Assembly: GCA_964016885.1 (NCBI GenBank)
Contig: OZ024755.1
Location: forward strand, 15,066,001 to 15,130,000
Origin: Eledone cirrhosa
Lineage: Eukaryota
Direction: 5' to 3'
Length of the DNA stretch: 64,000 nt
Shown: piece by piece, positions 1,892 to 64,000 of the stretch
How the letters are laid out: each line of letters begins with the position of its first letter
Numbering within the stretch: the stretch's first letter is position 1
Translations under genes and position numbers: made by a program
Notes under the pieces: generated by a model
Told to the model about the DNA's origin: nothing
The model's database searches: none
The model's input: only the letters and a program-made list of their open reading frames with translations

Positions 1892-3989
1892 ATATGTAAC
1901 CATAACAGAAGACATATCAGGAAATATTAATATATTTGTGTGAGTCCTATTATGAACATTTCAACGAAAGTGGAAGGCATTGCATTTTTTCTTTGAACAC
2001 AGAGAAAAAAACTGATAGATTCCCTATACAGATTTTACAACTAATTAGTAGCCTAGTAATCTTATCCTTCTGTGTAATGTATAGTTTTATTCTCAAAGGT
2101 TGGGCGGGTGTAGTCAACAGAGATATCTCTTCGGCAGTTCCAAGAAACATCTGATTTGATTGGAACGTACAATGTTCCAATTCCTGAAGAGGCATCCGAT
2201 TCCATTTGCCCTTGCACTGATATCCATCTGTTGCTAATGCCTACTAAATAAGAGTTTCGAAATGACATCATATAAGATGCACCAGTGCGCTCTGTGGTGA
2301 CAAATTCTCTGGATCATGATCTCAATGTGCTGCTAAAGCTAACTAATGCTTACTAAATATGTGTCATGATAGATGATGAGCTGGTACACTCTGATTTTTA
2401 TTCACCTGAAGGGATTACTGGAGGATAAAACTTAACTGAGTTGCTCTCCCCGTTCATATGATACGTGTTGCACACAGATAGACATTTAGAAAGATAGATT
2501 GAGAGATATATTGGTAAACATGTAGTCGGTAGTTAAACAGATAATTAATAGCTATATAGATACACAGATCGACAGAGAGAGAAACAGACAAATAGACGAA
2601 TTGATAAATAGAGAGTTAGGCAGTTAGATATTTAAAGGCTGTAGTCGGAAGGTAGATAGAAATATAGGTTGTTATAGAAAGCTACTGCCTGGCTACACAC
2701 TGCATTCTCAACACTGAGAGAGAGAGAAAGGGATAACATTAGGGAGGTAGATATCAATCTACTATTACTCAGCCGAAGATGGCATGAAATGGTTATCATG
2801 TGATGCTTGGTTTTCTTTATATACATTTTTTTCTGTTTGTTTTGTCAAACGAAATAATGTTGTACTTCGGTAGATAACGTCAGCTCACTCCAATGGGGTA
2901 TTAAACACATCTCTCAAACAAAACCTTGCCGCACATTCATTTTATGAATTGAATGAGTATGTTACAAAAGTGGGTTTTATGTTGAAATAAATTACGCATT
3001 TTACACAGGGGTATTTGATAGAAAAGCTTCACATCATCTCTTCCTCTCTGATCTCTTCTTTACCTCGAAGTTATGACATGTTCGTTGGTTTCTTTGTACT
3101 TGTAGCTATTATTACCCAGTTTGACAATGTTATTCAGTGGAGATCAAACATGTAAATAAGAGATAGCATTAAAAAAATGAAGAAACTTTGGCATATAGTC
3201 CGAGTGAATGGGTCAAAGTTTGAACATTAAGACATCAGTAACCGAAGTTTTCTGATATATTTTGAATATTTGTATCATCATCATCATCATTATTATTATA
3301 GATAAAGTAATTGCTAGACTACCTTTAAATCCATGCATCAACAGAAATATTGATAGAGCGATCGATATAACCAGAAAAGAAAGAAATTGAAGTAAATGAA
3401 CAAACGGTGTGTGTATATGTATAAACGTGTATAGGTTTGAATATATACGTTTGTATGTATAAAATATACGAAAGAGAATTTCAGACAAAATGATTGCACC
3501 GTTTCCAATATTCTATGAAATATTCCGAAATAAATGCATTCAGTTGTTGAATAGTTTTGCTAAATGCAAATGAAAATTCAAATTTTTTGTCCGCATCGAA
3601 TCTAGTTGAACACGTGAATTAATGGTGGAAATCGGACATATTCACAAGTATGCAAATATGTTCAGTTTATCGATACGTTTGCTTCAGCCCTTAATCCCTC
3701 TCTCAAATATACGCCCTTAGGTATGTATTCTATGCAGCAACATTCATTTCATTCTAATGCAGGAATTTTCCACTTCGGATCTCGATGTAAGCCGTCTATA
3801 TTGGAGAGATATATCGTGAGGCAATTTCAGATGCAAACTAATATGTGACGAGCTTTGAATTGACATCATCTTAATGGAAAACTGCTGCACGAAGACAGAA
3901 GACAAAACTGCTAGTTAGATATATAAATAGGTTTCGATAAATAGAGACGCATACTGATAAGCAAGCACGCAGTGATCTATGTATGTATT

Positions 3990-5608: not shown

Positions 5609-5649
<41 letters not shown>

Positions 5650-5724
5650 TTGTATGTATGTATACATGTTTGCTTGCATGTATCTATATATGTTTGTATG
5701 CAAGTATGTAAAGATTCTTGCATG

Positions 5725-5772
<48 letters not shown>

Positions 5773-5977
5773 GTCTGCGTTTGTGTGTAAACAATTAGTG
5801 CCGGGAAGAGTCATTTTGGGCTTTTACTAAGACACAAAATGACTTAACTATTGAAATAAATGATTTCTATGAAATCAAAGAATTTCTTTTTAGTTTAAAA
5901 ATGGTATGTTCACCTAGAATAGATTTTAGATTCAAATTAGCGATAAATTTAGTTGTCAGACAAATACCTCTCCTCTA

Positions 5978-6036
<59 letters not shown>

Positions 6037-6151
6037 ATATATATATATATTTATATGAGCAAAGGGATATTAAATTTTTGGGGGTTGGTAATTCAACAAA
6101 TATATATATTTATAACTGATTCGAAGCAATGGGCAAGTTTTCTGGGGTATA

Positions 6152-26693: not shown

Positions 26694-27153
26694 TCAAGCT
26701 GTGGCACGCTGCCCAGGCTTTGCTCTTCCTCTCGACTCCATCTTCTCCCGTATTCCCAATCTTTGCTCCCAAATGCAGCAAGTCCCCAAACAAGTCTAGC
26801 GGCTTCCCGCCTACATTAGTAATCCCATCTGGCTTCTCAACCAATCTCTACCAGATATTTCGTCTTAATATCATTCATTCTCAGCCCCACATTCATCGAC
26901 ACAGTCTCAACTTCCTGCATCAAACCGTCTGCATCCTTCACTGCGTTTGTCACCAAAACTATGTCATCGGCAAATTCAGCATCCGATATCTTTTTCACCT
27001 TAACTCTCCTGCTCTAAGACGGTGTTACAGTAACGCCAGAGTCCTGATGTTTCTCCAGTGCAAGGCGCATACAATAGTCCACTATGATTATAAAAAGGTA
27101 GGGAGCCAATGTATCTCCCTGGAGCAAACCAGCAAGTATCTCAAAGATACATT
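26691..27153 (-). mobile_element. RTE-clade LINE, inverted 5' segment (RT domain)
   Basis: GLLQGDTLAPYLFIIIVDY, EFADDIVL, LHLGAKI...RKSKAWAACHSL, with stops and a frameshift. Confidence 0.9.
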
Positions 27154-27573
27154 GCTGTAATGAAGTATGTGGTACTGTACGGGTGTGAGACTTGGACACT
27201 GACCAAGAACCTCACTCAGATGGTGGCTGGGTGCTACACGAGAATGCTGAGGATGGCTCTGAACATCAATCAATATACACTGAGGATGAACAACACAGAG
27301 CTGTATGGGAGCCTCCCAGTAGTCAGCTCAAAAGTGACACAGAGGAGACTGAGGTCAACTGGACATGCTCACCGACATCCAGAGTTGACACTGCACTCAG
27401 TGCTCCTGTGGAATACTCTGCATGGACATACTGGAAGAGGAAGACCGAGGTTAACATATGTTGATGCCCTAAGGACAGTCACTGGTCTGTTGGAGAGGTA
27501 TGACTTGGCAGTGATAATGAGGGACAGAGACCGCTGGAGAGAACACGTCCATGGATCTCGGGGATTTTACCCG

Positions 27574-27576
<3 letters not shown>
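27154..27576 (+). mobile_element. RTE-clade LINE, 3' segment
   Basis: VLYGCETWTL...GCYTRMLR...RRLRSTGH...GRGRPRLTYVD...MRDRDRWR, typical RTE C-terminus; ends in (TA)n. Confidence 0.9.
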
Positions 27577-27625
<49 letters not shown>

Positions 27626-27709
27626 TTGTGTGTGTGTACATATATGTATAATGTTGTTGATTTCCCTAAAATCCAAATAGGAAGAACACTTAATCCGAGT
27701 AACGTGACG

Positions 27710-38439: not shown

Positions 38440-39772
38440 TTAGCGAGAAAGTAATAGTCTCGGTTTCAAGTTACTTTCATAGTGAGAAAAGTTAGCATTC
38501 AGTTTGTGTTTGCAGTATAACGATCGTTCGATTCTGTCATTTAGTAAATTGTTTTTAGATTTCAAGATATAAAAAAGTTCAAGGTTGCATAATCTGCAAT
38601 ATGCACTAGCGCTGGATAATTTATCCCATTTTAGGTTGAACTGCTGGTTGTGTTCGCGGAGTTGCCAAGTCTTATTAGCGAGTGTAGTTACATAGCGGTG
38701 TTCAGGATGTTTAATCGAAAATCGATGACGATACCAGCATGATTTAAAGGAGGTAGTAGTAGACCCGACGTAATACTATTTCTGGTCGTTTCATTCGACA
38801 GTTCATTGATAAACAATGTTGGGCTCCAGGCATTTATTCTGCAATGGGCATCTCTCGGGTAGGTGATAATTACAGTTTTTGTTATGGGTAAATATCTGTT
38901 CCATGGATAGGTTGGGATAACAGTACAGGTGGGTTTCGTAATACTCGTTTCACATTTGGTGGTTGGGAAGTTGATATTACGTTATGCCCATATGTGTCTA
39001 AAATATTTTATTTTGTAGTGTTGTTTAATAATAGCTTTAAGTTAAGTTTTTTTTATGTGTGCTTCTAGGTTTGATGCAGTGGAGTATGATAGCTTAATAG
39101 CCTTAGAGTTTAAAATGTTACTGTATTTATGGGAATTAGGGAAATGCTTGTTAATTAACTTAAAGAATAAAAGAGATAGTTTTGTACTAATCGAAGCATT
39201 AAAAATGGGATTATACCAGACATACTTCCTGAAACGTAATTTGCTTGAGTTTGGTGATGATTTTTTTATTATTAGTATGTCTGGTGGTACTGCATGTGTG
39301 TGTTTGTATGCCTGTGCCCCGGTTACATATTCTTCGATTCTGTGCGTTGCTATGTGTGCTCTGGTGATTCTTATCAATGTATTCTATTTTATCCCAGTGG
39401 TCGGCATTTCCCAGTGCGCTATTATAGTATTCTGCATGTTCGCTGAAAATCTGAGAGTTAGACGTTAGGCGAGAAATTCTAAGATAAATACTACGAGGAA
39501 CCGATTTAATCATGGAAAGTGGGTGAGTCGAGTTGTAATTAATATAGGTAAGGTTCTCGTTTTTCTTGTGGAAGGGTCGTATCAATGCTGTGTTCAAATT
39601 AAGAGTTACGTCTAGAAAATTAGCAGTTATCAAATTTGATAATAGTTTTCCTGGCCTCTAGAATCATATTAATTTCGCCCTCCGTTAGATCTGAATTGAT
39701 CTTAGCAAACGATAGGGCCTTACGTAAAGTACTGGGTGAGATCGAAGAGTAGTATTCATCTATATCGAATTG
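38440..39772 (-). mobile_element. Penelope-like retroelement (Naiad-like), 5'-truncated, internally deleted pseudo-ORF
   Basis: [19 protein letters not shown]...STHP, RKYVWYNP...KHFP...LSYS, CN(Y)x5CPLQNKC, IVYQ...YYVGST...FK...H (GIY-YIG), CRLCNLE, CKH; stops and frameshifts; 5' end abuts (TA)n. Confidence 0.9.
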
Positions 39773-47470: not shown

Positions 47471-47966
47471 ATTCAAATGATGAGCTTGGCTGCACATGCA
47501 AATGCTTGTGTGTTACGCTGATGAAACGGGAAAATTCTGGGAGGAAATGAATGGGGAGAGGAATGGGTGGAGTATAACGAGAGTGTTGTAAGATATGAAT
47601 TCAGAAAGCAGGCTAAAGAACTGGCAATGAGATAAATATATAACATCATGTAAACACAAGAGACAGTGTGAAGTGGTGGTGAATAATAGATGAAAGGAAG
47701 GGAGATGAAATGATAAAGTAATACAAAAAAAGAGAGGGTAGTTACGTTACGAGAAGTGATCGAGACGTGAACTTGAAGAATACAACGAGATCTAAGGGAT
47801 AAAGAAGAATACGAGACATGTAATCGGAGGGAGGTGTCGAAATTAAGATATTTATGAAGAAGGGGTGAGCATGGTATCAAGGGATTGGTCGATCGGTGAA
47901 TCAATAGGTGTACTGATATATATATATATATATATAAAATCAAAAGATAGTTAAAAGAGTTCCAAC

Positions 47967-48037
47967 TATTTTATTATGCGCATTTCAAAAACAAATATCA
48001 TCATGGGATGATATTTGCGTTCTCATCAGATAAAATA
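47967..48037 (-). ncRNA. Type I hammerhead ribozyme motif (solo copy of the 61 kb family)
   Basis: TATTTTAT-CTGATGA-GAACGCAAATATCATC ccat GATGATATTTGTTTTT-GAA-ATGCGCAT-A-ATAAAATA; intact core; tail runs into (TA)n near 47935. Confidence 0.8.
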
Positions 48038-57922: not shown

Positions 57923-58164
57923 ATTATGTAATAAACAACACAATACAATTATTCCATTTACCAAAGGTTTCACGAAGACAGGCGACCTCAATAGAGACGT
58001 CCGAAATCGTTCATCAGAAAGCAAAATTTAATATGGATATCTTGAATTATCCATATTAAATGTTCCTTTCTGATCGATTTCAGACGTCTCTATTGAGGTT
58101 GCCTATCTTTGTGAAACGTTTGGAAAATGGGATAATTGCATTGTGTTGTTTATTACATAATTAA
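57920..58164. mobile_element. Fold-back element with outward-facing hammerhead motifs (second family)
   Basis: Arms about 120 bp, 8 nt loop, abuts (TA)n. Confidence 0.85.
57952..58024 (-). ncRNA. Type I hammerhead motif
   Basis: CTGATGA-ACGA...TCGT-GAA-ACC ttt GGT-A; stem I imperfect in this arm and better paired in the other arm, whose core has a 3 nt deletion. Confidence 0.6.
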
Positions 58165-58219
58165 ATATCTCTGTAGTATACATAGAGCACTCTTCTTTCC
58201 TTTACTCTTTTTACGGAAA

Positions 58220-58331
<112 letters not shown>

Positions 58332-58609
58332 GCGTGTGCGTGTGTATTTACATATCTAAACTATAATAAAAGAATGTCTGCGGGACTGCGCACTGTTTAT
58401 TTCTTTTAATCCAGTTAGTAAAATAAGTTGGATTACTTTGTATAAATAATTGTTTCTACAATAGGCACAATGAATGAATATTACATAATTTATTTACTAA
58501 ACTTCGTAAACAAAAATAATTTCGTAAAATTAAATAATTTCAAATTGACTTCTTTTCAAAGTTGCACTTCCGGTATATCGTCGCCACCACCACCACTTCA
58601 ACTACCATA

Positions 58610-59180
58610 TATATAGACCAGGTAATACACACATCTTAGACCACATAGAACAAAATGCAGACGAAAGGATGGGAAAACGAGCCGCTACCAGAGCAAGAGA
58701 TAGCAATATAGCGAGGAGCACTGGGAAACCTCTCTAATAATTTTTAGGCAAGCCAGCACGCTCGCAGCGTTACCGGGGTGATGGCGAGGCTAAGGTGCTG
58801 GAACAACCTAGTGCCCTCACGAGCATCAGCAGTTACCTCTGTTTGGTGAGCCGCCAGTGAAGATAATAACCTCGCTGTCAGTAGCCCGACTCCCCCAAAC
58901 GTCTCGAACGTCACAGGCTGGATAATGTAGTTAGCTAACAGAACACGGTATTTTAGGATTTTGTTCCGTTCAGCTGCGGATACTGTAGCTCTCGCCCTTA
59001 CCGCTGCATCGAGAATGTGGGAAGAAGCAAATGAGTCACTAACTGTGACGTCCCAGGTAAGGCACCTGCCTCTTGAACAGGATCACAGAATAAGACCGTC
59101 AAGTCTTTTCCCATCAATTCAGGACAACCCAGACAGTTACAAAATTGCGGGGATGTTTGCCCGGGTCAAAGCTCTTGAGT
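58610..59180 (-). mobile_element. CRE-clade LINE 3' end (restriction-like endonuclease)
   Basis: RALTRANIP...DGKRLDG...TWDVTVSD...AERNKILKY...PVTFETFG...FQHLSLAI.GNAASVL; 3' UTR ends in a short TA run. Confidence 0.85.
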
Positions 59181-59339
59181 GGTAATAGGACAGTGTGCGT
59201 ATGTGCGCGCCCGTGAGTTTGTCGGCGTTCTTAAATAGGAGACACGTGTGTGTGTGTCACTCTATTTAAGTTAGACATATGTGTGTATCCTATTCCTTCC
59301 TTTTTCACACACATACATTCACACAAACACACATACACA

Positions 59340-60020
59340 TTGCGTGATGGACGGGTGGACAGAAGTCCCTCAAATTTATATACATGTGAATGGAGTTCTA
59401 CTGAAGCAGATAGAGAAGTTCAAGACCTTGGAGCCGTGTTCATGAGTGATTGAATGCAGGAGGGTGAATTAAGTGCAAGAATTTCAAAAGCTGATGCAGT
59501 AAAGCGCCAGCCTCAACAATCAGATGAAGGTGGGTAGGTGTAAAAGCCAAACTCGCTGTCTTCCTGGTATTCCTGCCAACTCTTGCCGAGAATCATGAAT
59601 CTTGAGTAATGACCAAAAGAATACAATTGCAAATGAAAGTGGCAGAAATGGGATTCCTCCAAAGGGTCTTTGGAGTAACGTTACTCGATAAAGTGCATAA
59701 CTCAGAGACCAGAGTTTCACTCCTGGTAGAGTAGCTACTTTTCCGAATTGAGAGATCACAACTCCGATACTATGAGCATATGGTTAGAATGTCTCAGTAA
59801 AGAATCGCTGGACACATTTTACAGTCAAAACCAACCAGCAAGAGACCCAGAGGTAGACCCTGAGCAAGATAGTTGGATAACATCCATGAGCTTGGCTGGT
59901 TACGCTTTAGGATCCAGCTGGATCAGTTAGAGATGTTTGCTACTGACAGACTGGAAGGAGTGTTTGAGAAGGACTCTGCCCCCACGATTCTCTAAGAAAT
60001 AAGGGGGTGAAGAAGAAGAT
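59340..60020 (+). mobile_element. RTE LINE 3' fragment
   Basis: LKQIEKFK, LGAVFMSD, VAEMGFL, IERSQLRY, RPRGRP; (GAA)n tail. Confidence 0.8.
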
Positions 60021-60361
60021 ATTATCAATTTACATGTATCTATATGCATATATATTTGCGTATAATACCAATATGCACACTACATATGTCAGCAGAAAAC
60101 CGGCCAAAGGGCGGTTTTTCTACTAGCATATATAAGGATCTTTATTGGGCTCTTTGTTATTAAAAGTCACAGTTTTAATTTGAAGTGTTATATGGTATAT
60201 AGGCTGAACGCTTTATCGTAGTTATACTTTCAAAGTGTATATAATGTTCTAGAGTAGAAGGACAGATGTGGTAAGAGGGAAATTTAGGTATATAAGGAAT
60301 TATATATATATAAGTGTACGTGTGAGTATGTCTCTGTGTGTGTATGCGTATATATATATAT

Positions 60362-60598
60362 ATTATTATAAATGTAAGCTATCGCCGTATTTTGACTAAA
60401 GAGATTAAAGAAATTATTTAGCATGATAGTGGGTTTAAGAACTCTCGGAGAAATGGAAAAAAGATGAGTATTGACGTACATGTAAGTCAATACTCATCTT
60501 TTTCAATTTCTATGAGGGTTCTTAACCTCACTATCAGGCTAAATAATTTCTTTAATTTCTTTAGTCAAGATACGGCGATAGCTTACGTTTCTAATAAT
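60362..60598. repeat. Fold-back with zero-loop centre
   Basis: Arms about 118 bp around TACA|TGTA at 60480/60481; abuts (TA)n. Confidence 0.9.
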
Positions 60599-61066
60599 TT
60601 CAAACCCACTCGGTATTTCGAAAATATTCTTACAAATATATTAAAATATCGAGCCCTCTTTGGATTTACTCTCCAAATTTATTATTATTACTATATATAT
60701 ATATAAACGATTATATTAAATATATATATATACATATATATATATAATAAATAATTCATATCTAGTAACATATATATACATACAGATGCATATCAATGCT
60801 AGCAAATATATAGGTTTTGTCTTAATAACAGTGTGGTTCAATGCATGGGGTTGCAGAACAATAATATAAGAGACGTAAAATAAGAAAATTATAAAATTAA
60901 CTTACTTACTAAAATATCACTTCCAACTAATTAGTTTCTGGAATGGAGTAAATATATTTTCCGAAGAAAAATATTGAGAAGCATTCCGTCGTCAGGAAAG
61001 TCTATTCTCATGTAAGTTTCCAGGCAAATATATATATATATATATATAAATAAACGTATATATTGA

Positions 61067-61137
<71 letters not shown>

Positions 61138-61209
61138 CGTATATATTGAATATATATATATATATATATATAATATAAGATCAAAAGATGGTTAAAGGAG
61201 TTCCATATA

Positions 61210-61276
61210 TTTTATTATGCGCATTTCAAAAACAAACATCATCAAACAATAATATTTGTGGTTTCATCAGATAAAA
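61210..61276 (-). ncRNA. Type I hammerhead ribozyme motif
   Basis: Reverse complement of 61391-61457 with one change in stem II. Confidence 0.75.
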
Positions 61277-61390
61277 CAGGAGAATATGATATGAAGGCTA
61301 AAAAACACTTGTTGATAGTGCAGTTTTAAATCAACATATAAAACTGCACTATCAACAAGTGTTTTTTAGCCTTCATATCATGTTCTCCTG

Positions 61391-61457
61391 TTTTATCTGA
61401 TGAAAACACAAATATTATTGTTTGATGATGTTTGTTTTTGAAATGCGCATAATAAAA
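61391..61457 (+). ncRNA. Type I hammerhead ribozyme motif
   Basis: TTTTAT-CTGATGA(61397-61403)-16 bp stem II-GAA-ATGCGCAT-A(61451)-ATAAAA. Confidence 0.8.
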
Positions 61458-61582
61458 TATATGGAACTCCTTTAACCATCTTTTGATCTTATATTATGCA
61501 TACTCCAGTCCCACAAACTGTAGAGTGCTTCTTATCCGATATCTGCATTGCTTTATTGTACTACAATAAAACTCACCTCCTA

Positions 61583-62655
<1,073 letters not shown>

Positions 62656-63250
62656 ATACATATGTATATTACATACATATATATATATAAACATATGTAT
62701 ATATATAATACATATGTATATTACATACATATATATAAACATATGTATATATATAAACATATACTCACACATATTTATATATATAAATATATATTTGTGT
62801 GTGTGTAAGTGTGTGTAAGTGTGCGTACGTTTGTGTTTCAGTGATTTTGTTTACCACGTACATCAACAACTGTTTTCCACGCTGTCTCTTATGTCTTTTC
62901 AGTTGGGATTTTGCATCCGCTTTTCAAAATAATAATGCTGAAATGAATGCACCTGTTGCTGTCAGCACAACAAAATTAATTATTGGGATGTACAACAAAA
63001 TCGCTTCCTTCCTCAATACTCGGTATCTAACTATAAAAGGTTTCTTTTATCAACGAAAGACAACGTGTTATTTTCTTGATTAACAATGGTAGCCAGGGAA
63101 AACATTCACATACAATATAGTTTCATAAATAATTATATATATATATATAAATATATATAAATATATATATATATATAGATATAGATATATAGATAGATTG
63201 ATAGATTGGTCGATAGATATAGATATATGTGTATACGCATTTATGCCAGT

Positions 63251-63309
<59 letters not shown>

Positions 63310-63756
63310 AACGGATAGATAGATAGATAAGTAGATAATCGTAAATGCTGGTAAAATGCATACAAATAGGATACAGTGTTATAGAGAAAACTATGCTATA
63401 TAGATTTGTTTGTACCAAACACTTACTAGAAGAAATAAATACAAAAAAACTCTTCATCGACGCATACAATAGACACCTTCATATATATGGGTGTGTTTGT
63501 GTGTGTGTGTTTAAAAAAGTATCTTTAAAAACCATGTAGTAAGACTGAACTTTAAGGGGATCTCTTTTTTACCAGCAAATAACAATACAACACACACAAA
63601 CACAGACGTATATATATATATATATATATATATACTATATATATATATATATATATACATATATACATATATATATATATATTATAGCTGTAGGAATATA
63701 TCCCGCTTGAGACGGAAAAACTAACACAGGAGACATATATAACTAAGAAAATGTAA

Positions 63757-63863
63757 TAAGAAACCAGGTGGACCATAACGCACCAGAGTACTCGATACTT
63801 AGGGTAGTAGAGTGGGTAATAGAAAAAGAGTCAGGACCGAGCTCAGCCGTCGGGGTCCTGACT
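63757..63863 (+). repeat. Repeat family A copy with a short inversion
   Basis: Matches 56449-56525; AGTCAGGACC...GGTCCTGACT terminal inversion. Confidence 0.85.
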
Positions 63864-64000
63864 GTGTGTGTTTTGTAGCGTATTATATTTAAAGTAAATT
63901 GCAGATTCTGATAATATTGATAGATATATATTTATATATGTTAGTTATTGGGACAAGATCAAAAAGCCGGTGTTTCGATTCCTGAAGCAGACGGCGTGTG

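Follow-up and report, generated by a model that had tools for sequence, protein, structure and literature searches.

The question raised by this locus, which lies in the 64,000-nt stretch of Eledone cirrhosa DNA analysed here (the window), is whether a long palindrome with a hammerhead ribozyme motif on each strand is a mobile element in its own right or a by-product of a larger one. The original prediction, made from the letters alone, described a 328-bp hairpin and proposed either an independent, non-autonomous, TA-targeting retroelement with 3′ ends at both termini or an extreme truncation product of a Penelope-like element (PLE). The hairpin itself is as described: positions 61170-61497 form arms of 159 bp around a 10-nt loop, with mismatches at two positions (61261/61406 and 61285/61382) and a minimum free energy (MFE) of -248.9 kcal/mol (z -49.7), equalled by 0 of 100 shuffles. 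Its outer limit, however, had been set too short. The element does not end at 61497 but runs on through an 88-nt extension (61498-61585) common to other copies and then meets (TA)n; the whole unit is 61170-61585, with (TA)n at each end. Likewise, the 45 nt taken for a tail are the 3′ part of a pseudo-LTR (pLTR), and the true PLE tail is 61498-61585. The notion that 3′ ends of the element lie at both termini of the palindrome did hold. No target-site duplication was readable inside the (TA)n at these insertions. The features are as follows, with pLTR positions counted from +1, the A of TTTTC/ATATG in the 3′ UTR of the parent element.

61081 to 61169, no strand: left (TA)n target, from the sequence
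61170 to 61339, minus strand: tail-less arm, pLTR +1 to +170 of the autonomous PLE
61210 to 61276, minus strand (read 61276 to 61210): left copy of the type I hammerhead motif, predicted cut after 61216
61329 to 61340, no strand: head-to-head junction, from the sequence set against long copies
61340 to 61497, plus strand: tailed arm, pLTR +13 to +170
61391 to 61457, plus strand: right copy of the type I hammerhead motif, predicted cut after 61451
61498 to 61585, plus strand: PLE tail, 88 nt, with an AC-rich run at its end
61586 to 62650, no strand: right (TA)n target, a long imperfect microsatellite whose right boundary is approximate

The tail-less arm starts at 61339, which is +1, the fixed end point considered below, and is 97.7% identical to positions 1-171 of a full-length unit; the tailed arm and tail together (61340-61585) are 98.8% identical to a full-length unit over 251 nt. 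At the junction the left arm is complete to +1, the right arm begins at +12/+13, and the microhomology is 1 nt. An older, 88% identical copy of this hammerhead and end of the pLTR also lies in the window (47932-48035, minus strand); it folds back over a very short length at the 5′ end and is flanked on both sides by (TA)n.

Judged by their sequence, the arms of the hairpin are the pLTR of an autonomous Hydra-clade PLE of the same genome. Twenty regions were fetched in which two ribozyme motifs stood 1-7 kb apart, and several contain a long ORF flanked by an inverted tail-less arm and a tailed arm. Locus L061 has an intact, 821-codon open frame and matches the window arm plus tail at 97% over 251 nt, so the linkage to PLE ORFs that had been proposed as a check came out positive. 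The single ORF encodes an 801-aa protein with a reverse transcriptase (RT) and a GIY-YIG region. Pfam and PDB sequence searches with this protein returned no match; its structural model (pLDDT 82) resembles reverse transcriptases, telomerases standing at ranks 2-5, and its motifs comprise RW, DKT, YRDD, CxCX5C, CxxC and CxH, with a GIY-YIG-like stretch that lacks CCHH. The C-terminal endonuclease is thus a putative GIY-YIG enzyme, assigned by motif. The RW motif reads RWT here and RWK, RWR or RWF in homologues, the only named one (37%) being from a cephalopod. In the available text of PMC8557442, the Hydra clade is defined by RWK and DKT, no GxKF/Y, a CxCX5C linker, no CCHH, and CxxC plus CxH, and the motifs of the Eledone protein would place it there. 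As in EN+ PLEs, a telomerase-like RT shares one ORF with a GIY-YIG at the C-terminus, and L061-L080 present partial-tandem pLTRs, an inverted 5′ copy and a one-sided tail. The full-length unit is 3.66 kb. The 88 nt are 5′ UTR sequence, which tandem copies carry after the pLTR and before the ORF, and therefore they are the PLE tail; exact tail-to-5′ UTR junctions number 210 genome-wide. The window unit is therefore a standard insertion of the "inverted copy plus tail" type, as drawn in Fig. 2 of PMC8557442, without the body.

Several features of the PLE landscape in this genome deserve separate mention. In L061, the 3′ UTR before +1 holds 215-bp sub-repeats (5630-6057), subfamily-dependent in number, which may possibly be promoter or enhancer units. 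On contig 6 (G000:C6:38068880-38089520; L266-L268, L275), five 3.66-kb units stand in tandem, with an inverted arm at one side and a tailed end at the other; the units differ by 0-7 substitutions and the ORF is interrupted in every one. This array was considered as proof of rolling-circle copying and rejected as such, because later unequal crossing-over fits it too. Within the window, a degraded ORF at 38488-39772 (minus strand) belongs to another Hydra-type PLE family, being 35-59% identical in pieces to the L061 protein. Additional inverted repeats occur near several copies (flanks of L062, L063, L069, L076 and L080), which suggests that these (TA)n sites serve further PLE families as well. 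A fragment at 27094-27651 (plus strand) resembles the C-terminus of a non-LTR reverse transcriptase, one that we take to be of RTE type.

The ribozyme motifs, by sequence, are those of a candidate type I hammerhead, one on each strand (61391-61457 plus, 61276-61210 minus) and both pointing outward, much as originally proposed. Each runs in the order UUUUAU, CUGAUGA, a 36-nt stem II, GAA, AUGCGCAU, A and AUAAAA, and in the right copy stem III is self-complementary, which agrees with the minimal, PLE-type hammerhead with palindromic stem III that had been suggested. The proposed 16-bp stem II needs a small correction, since the right arm has 15 pairs and one C-U mismatch and the left arm a second C-U mismatch, at the stem's base. 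The search with hammerhead models, also proposed at the outset, found no hammerhead family in Rfam at E≤1 across 58000-64000, returning hairpin and microsatellite noise only. The call is made on the motif and its conservation pattern: the core CUGANGA/GAAA/UH, three stems, and variation that follows the structure. Across 175 locus ids, a few of which overlap, N7, a free position, is the only one in CUGAUGA to vary at 5% or more, no column of stem I is variable, and pairing survives all 7 common variants of stem II, against 18 variable columns of 83 in the flanks; the two conservation tests put chance at about 0.05 and 0.03. Copies were selected by GAAA and stem III, so that conservation of those two carries no weight. 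Core and stem I are thus nearly invariant relative to their flanks, contrary to the refuting outcome named at the outset, a core no more conserved than its flanks. In related families the stem III palindrome is altered on both sides and stem II is replaced. Three other hammerhead families, at L013:1079-1214, L064:4105-4171 and L079:3848-3914, have the same stem I and core but differ in stem II and in the stem III palindrome. Such conservation indicates selection on the parent lineage rather than on the short copies.

As for how such a ribozyme might act, the predicted MFE structure of the monomer does not adopt the hammerhead fold, and two copies are predicted to pair via stem III (8 bp, -10.5 kcal/mol), which is consistent with the dimer model in the available part of PMC4209133. 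That the two motifs of the window act as a pair is unlikely, because each strand has only one ribozyme in sense, and in a transcript of the full palindrome that ribozyme is predicted to be hidden within the 159-bp duplex. Moreover, the short copies keep the sequence on both sides of the cut, and therefore their template was either uncut or re-ligated. The 5′ ends at the predicted cut are weakly enriched, with no clear signal. By hand count, roughly 30 true junctions were found at +125 among the first 100 of 116 matches listed; the corresponding figures were about 7 of 65 for +126 and about 15 of 16 for +131. As a sign of cleavage these ends were rejected, since ATA microhomology explains the junctions.

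Was the hairpin mere debris, as the truncation alternative would have it? The 23-nt ribozyme motif has 22,619 exact copies in this 3.0-Gb genome (0 for the reversed control), which settles the copy-number check of the original prediction, and inverted pairs of the motif are sharply concentrated by spacing: 636 at 169-199 nt, 2,627 at 200-230 nt and 380 at 231-261 nt. Random fold-back points do not give 2,627 palindromes within a single 31-nt bin; the end point is fixed to the base, and the debris reading fails. A near-complete census covered contig 1 over its first 97 Mb and took in 71 loci, with one edge locus set aside; 67 of these copies have one tail, 3 none and 1 both. TA targeting, also part of the original prediction, stands: 64 of the 67 one-tailed copies are flanked by (TA)n on both sides, which, with the hammerhead in the pLTR, is the Hydra-clade pattern. 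Among the 142 arms of the census, 86 stop at +1, 53 are shorter or altered in the motif, and 3 continue past +1, one of these probably by chance. Over the whole genome, +1 to +17 are intact in 11,755 arms (a count that leaves out T at -7), compared with 6,363 in which the bases upstream are native. This puts the share of pLTRs that stop at +1 at about 46%; a hand count gave 35 among the first 100 listed.

The behavior of the ORF-linked pLTRs is the most informative contrast. Among pLTRs that continue into the 5′ UTR with +1 kept, the native TC stands upstream in 101 of 105 (Fisher p 5e-22 against the genome-wide figure), and of 30 such loci examined in detail none began at +1. Of the four exceptions, three were inspected, namely L273, L274 and one point variant. 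Hence +1 is no intrinsic pause, and the long cDNAs that read past it came from a template without an end there.

The base in front of +1 provides a second clue. Where a non-native purine precedes +1, G outnumbers A by 74 to 26 among the first 100 of 3,398 matches listed, compared with 33 to 62 in all 95 at an internal control site (hand counts; p 4e-8). An extra G at full-length LINE-1 (L1) insertions has been ascribed to the cap (PMC11702581, in its available part), and Penelope transcription is reported to begin inside the pLTR (PMC2377424, likewise). On this basis, +1 is likely to be a capped RNA polymerase II start. There are complications. Where -2 is C or G, G is not dominant at -1 (G 30, A 36, C 25 and T 9 of 100), and at 281 junctions the G can equally be read as the complement of a partner arm ending at its native -1 C; other possible sources of the extra G are 5-nt duplications and microhomology. 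Single-base filler, 48 of 50 being C or G, was set aside as a cap signature because it is ambiguous. Two of the exceptional loci link +1 with an RNA that contained the ORF: in L273 the copy opens at +1, preceded by a G, and reaches the ORF start, and L274 spans +1 to +1118, into the ORF. L273 (G000:C5, about 21104700-21105070) extends from +1 to +346 and ends in the region of the ORF start codon, which suggests a third, rare priming site used by TA microhomology.

Long perfect palindromes beside microsatellites are prone to artefacts, and one might thus ask whether the hairpin is a fold-back of assembly or sequencing. We give this a negligible chance: the arms differ from one another, only one of them has a tail, and contigs from public runs agree, with summed depth rising from 281,563 at L061:6087 to 632,204 at 6096, across +1, in run X1, and one contig switching strand at +1 in run X6. 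Both runs come from a single study, and the assembly may have been built from them.

Copies in the thousands, nearly constant in length and bounded by (TA)n on either side, are what one would expect if the whole palindrome transposed as the unit of an independent, non-autonomous family, with a ribozyme on each strand, and this was the first alternative of the original prediction. It has become highly improbable, and as a single family it is refuted. All of the sequence is pLTR and tail of the autonomous element; the ribozyme is predicted to be sequestered in a full-palindrome transcript; and junctions vary from copy to copy within one haplotype, so there is no inherited junction as in SINE- or MITE-like families. 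Nor do the short copies form a lineage of their own. On a tree of 66 stop-at-+1 and 74 read-through loci (140 loci of about 150 nt, with shorter arms and 30 query-selected loci left out), the two kinds are intermixed, with 38 label changes against a shuffled mean of 40.6, and a single clade of short copies is rejected (p-AU 1e-76). There are no private variants in the family sense either, no allele found in 3 or more stop-at-+1 loci being absent from the read-through loci, and nearest-neighbour distances in the comparison of the two kinds are equal (1.97 vs 2.02). A comparison of 140 loci of about 150 nt leaves room for small secondary lineages of short copies. The arms stand head to head, not as direct tandem repeats with a hammerhead each, which sets the unit apart from non-LTR retrozymes as well.

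The same data bear on a subtler alternative, which leaves the run-off chemistry unchanged and alters only the source RNA: short tailed RNAs might start at +1 in the 3′ pLTR of tailed copies, or from an internal promoter of the palindromes, and be mobilised in trans like SINEs, with the palindrome rebuilt at each insertion. The internal promoter of the Penelope pLTR can drive downstream transcription, according to the available text of PMC2377424, the tailed short copies retain +1 and both start sites, and the limitation of +1 stops to short products would be accounted for. Four variants in the short palindromes, private to both arms of one locus (31 others are on one arm only), hint at rare source loci. 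The intermixing on the tree, the equal distances and the lack of private alleles just described speak against it, however, as do L273 and L274, in which +1 ends sit on RNA continuing into the 5′ UTR and ORF. We consider it unlikely, with perhaps a modest share of the probability.

How, then, are the two arms made? The insertions have two 3′ end points, +170 (tail-less) and +259 (tailed). Informative here are copies in which a partial tail is joined directly to an arm (493 matches, a minority of which read through +1 or are counted twice): 25 of 30 inspected consist of a tail piece, a +1 arm, hammerhead, no tail, and (TA)n. Each target end was therefore primed separately, and a single cDNA folding back cannot account for these copies. 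The arms of one palindrome nonetheless share a source. Among 69 short palindromes, a set that takes in 30 loci chosen by similarity to the window, the arms are identical across the 20 diagnostic columns in 52 and show a single difference in 15, compared with 8% identical at those columns between loci; against this, 4 of 24 long pairs differ at 6-8 diagnostic sites. The matching arms fit one RNA or one source locus, with little later homogenisation.

The near identity of the arms, together with 938 loci that have a perfect palindrome centred on CATATG, might instead be taken to mean that +1 is a pause or snap-back hot spot, with this micro-palindrome on an ordinary long RNA letting the cDNA fold on itself. 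The same sequence is read through in 101 of the 105 ORF-linked pLTRs, filler separates the two +1 ends at many junctions, 25 of the 30 tail-only copies inspected have no arm on one side to copy from, and the one-sided tail is left unexplained. Snap-back is already largely refuted and we regard it as quite improbable.

The simplest reading that joins these observations (identity with the autonomous element, end points at +170, +259 and +1, the excess of G, separately primed pieces and matching arms) is that the hairpin is a pLTR-plus-tail insertion made by twin-primed cDNAs that ran off a probably capped 5′ end and were joined head to head; we put its probability at about 0.72. The element protein would nick both strands of the (TA)n target, and both cut ends would prime reverse transcription near the start of the PLE RNA, at +170 for the tail-less arm and at +259 for the tailed one, with a single uncut RNA probably serving both. 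Both cDNAs would then run off the capped 5′ end at +1 and be joined through ATAT microhomology or overlap, by a blunt join, or with filler. A PLE of the anole provides a precedent, in that both strands are cut and extended, two RT starts bracket the tail, and uncut RNA is the main substrate (PMC11167929, in the part available).

The long copies, in this scheme of twin-primed run-off, would read through +1 from a template without an end there. A linear mRNA starting at +1 should yield full-length copies from +1, and there are almost none, so that a second template is required. The likeliest candidate is a circle arising from cleavage at two tandem hammerheads, to which we would give somewhat less than an even chance; a jump to the 3′ pLTR once the 5′ end of the RNA is reached and read-through transcripts of tandem arrays are open alternatives. 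In the anole work, RNA reads neither began nor ended at the ribozyme site, and mutants of the ribozyme still inserted in vitro (PMC11167929, same part), which weakens the circle step and lends no support to a need for cleavage. More tentatively still, the RNA may have two fates: uncut and capped, it would give palindromic strong-stop insertions; cut at its two tandem hammerheads and circularised, it would be copied around the circle from those priming sites without reaching a 5′ end, giving full-length, partial-tandem and multi-unit copies. If true, a single mechanism would account for the way pLTRs are regenerated, for the tail and the inverted copy, and for what the ribozyme is for.

The hairpin is thus a by-product of a known class of retroelement, and its value is that of a large natural experiment. 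The PLE cycle has been called undefined, with no obvious mechanism for pLTR regeneration, in the available parts of PMC8557442 and PMC2377424, and the +1 pattern would help to test how PLEs copy themselves. The predictions are at base level, namely an RNA start at +1, priming at +170 and +259, ribozyme cleavage following +124 and, for the long copies, a template that does not end at +1. With at least 2,600 to 3,600 long hairpins, the genome would also hold a potential source of double-stranded RNA. The anatomy of an inverted copy plus tail is already in print; in the portions available of the literature accessible without subscription, we found no report of a fixed, G-marked PLE end point and no description of its absence from ORF-linked pLTRs.

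Among known systems, the closest are the complex insertions of EN+ PLEs (Craig et al. 2021, PMC8557442; Schostak et al. 2008, PMC2377424, both from the parts available), which share the inverted tail-less and tailed 3′ ends, the partial tandems and the microsatellite targets; Penelope-13_HM, in the supplement of PMC8557442, even has an inverted copy with a hammerhead on each strand. Truncation is called variable in these insertions, whereas about half of the Eledone pLTRs stop at one base with an extra G, and the upstream pLTRs linked to ORFs, unlike the terminal ones, lack the +1 stop. The tail is 88 nt in Eledone and 30-40 in the EN+ PLE complex insertions. With the Hydra clade, including Hydra-1_Obim, the Eledone PLE has in common RW, DKT, CxCX5C, no CCHH, CxxC and CxH, as well as (TA)n targeting and a hammerhead near the 3′ end; its unit is 3.66 kb, compared with generally under 3 kb, and its hammerhead, with a long stem II, a self-complementary stem III and no closure as a monomer, is unlike all those in the available File S2 of PMC8557442. 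Placed by its motifs, it would be a distinct family within the Hydra clade.

In anole Poseidon PAc (Frangieh et al. 2024, PMC11167929, in its available part), two RT starts downstream of the pLTR likewise define the tail, and both strands are cut and extended at an AT-rich target from an AC-rich start region with uncut RNA as substrate; PAc is of a different clade, and neither a natural capped 5′ end nor palindromic run-off insertions are described in that part. Non-LTR retrozymes (Cervera and de la Pena 2020, PMC7229834; Li et al. 2026, bioRxiv 10.64898/2026.07.22.740005; available portions) are also short and non-coding, with a type I hammerhead and pLTR-related sequence. They are, however, direct tandem repeats with circular RNA intermediates and families of their own, whereas the Eledone palindromes are head to head, have no lineage of their own and keep the sequence upstream of the cut. 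Finally, in L1 twin priming (PMC11702581, in the part available), both target ends prime, producing an inversion, and a G likewise marks the full-length 5′ end. The L1 inversions are essentially non-overlapping, with variable break points, whereas in the Eledone PLE the two priming sites are fixed and the same 170 nt are usually copied from both.
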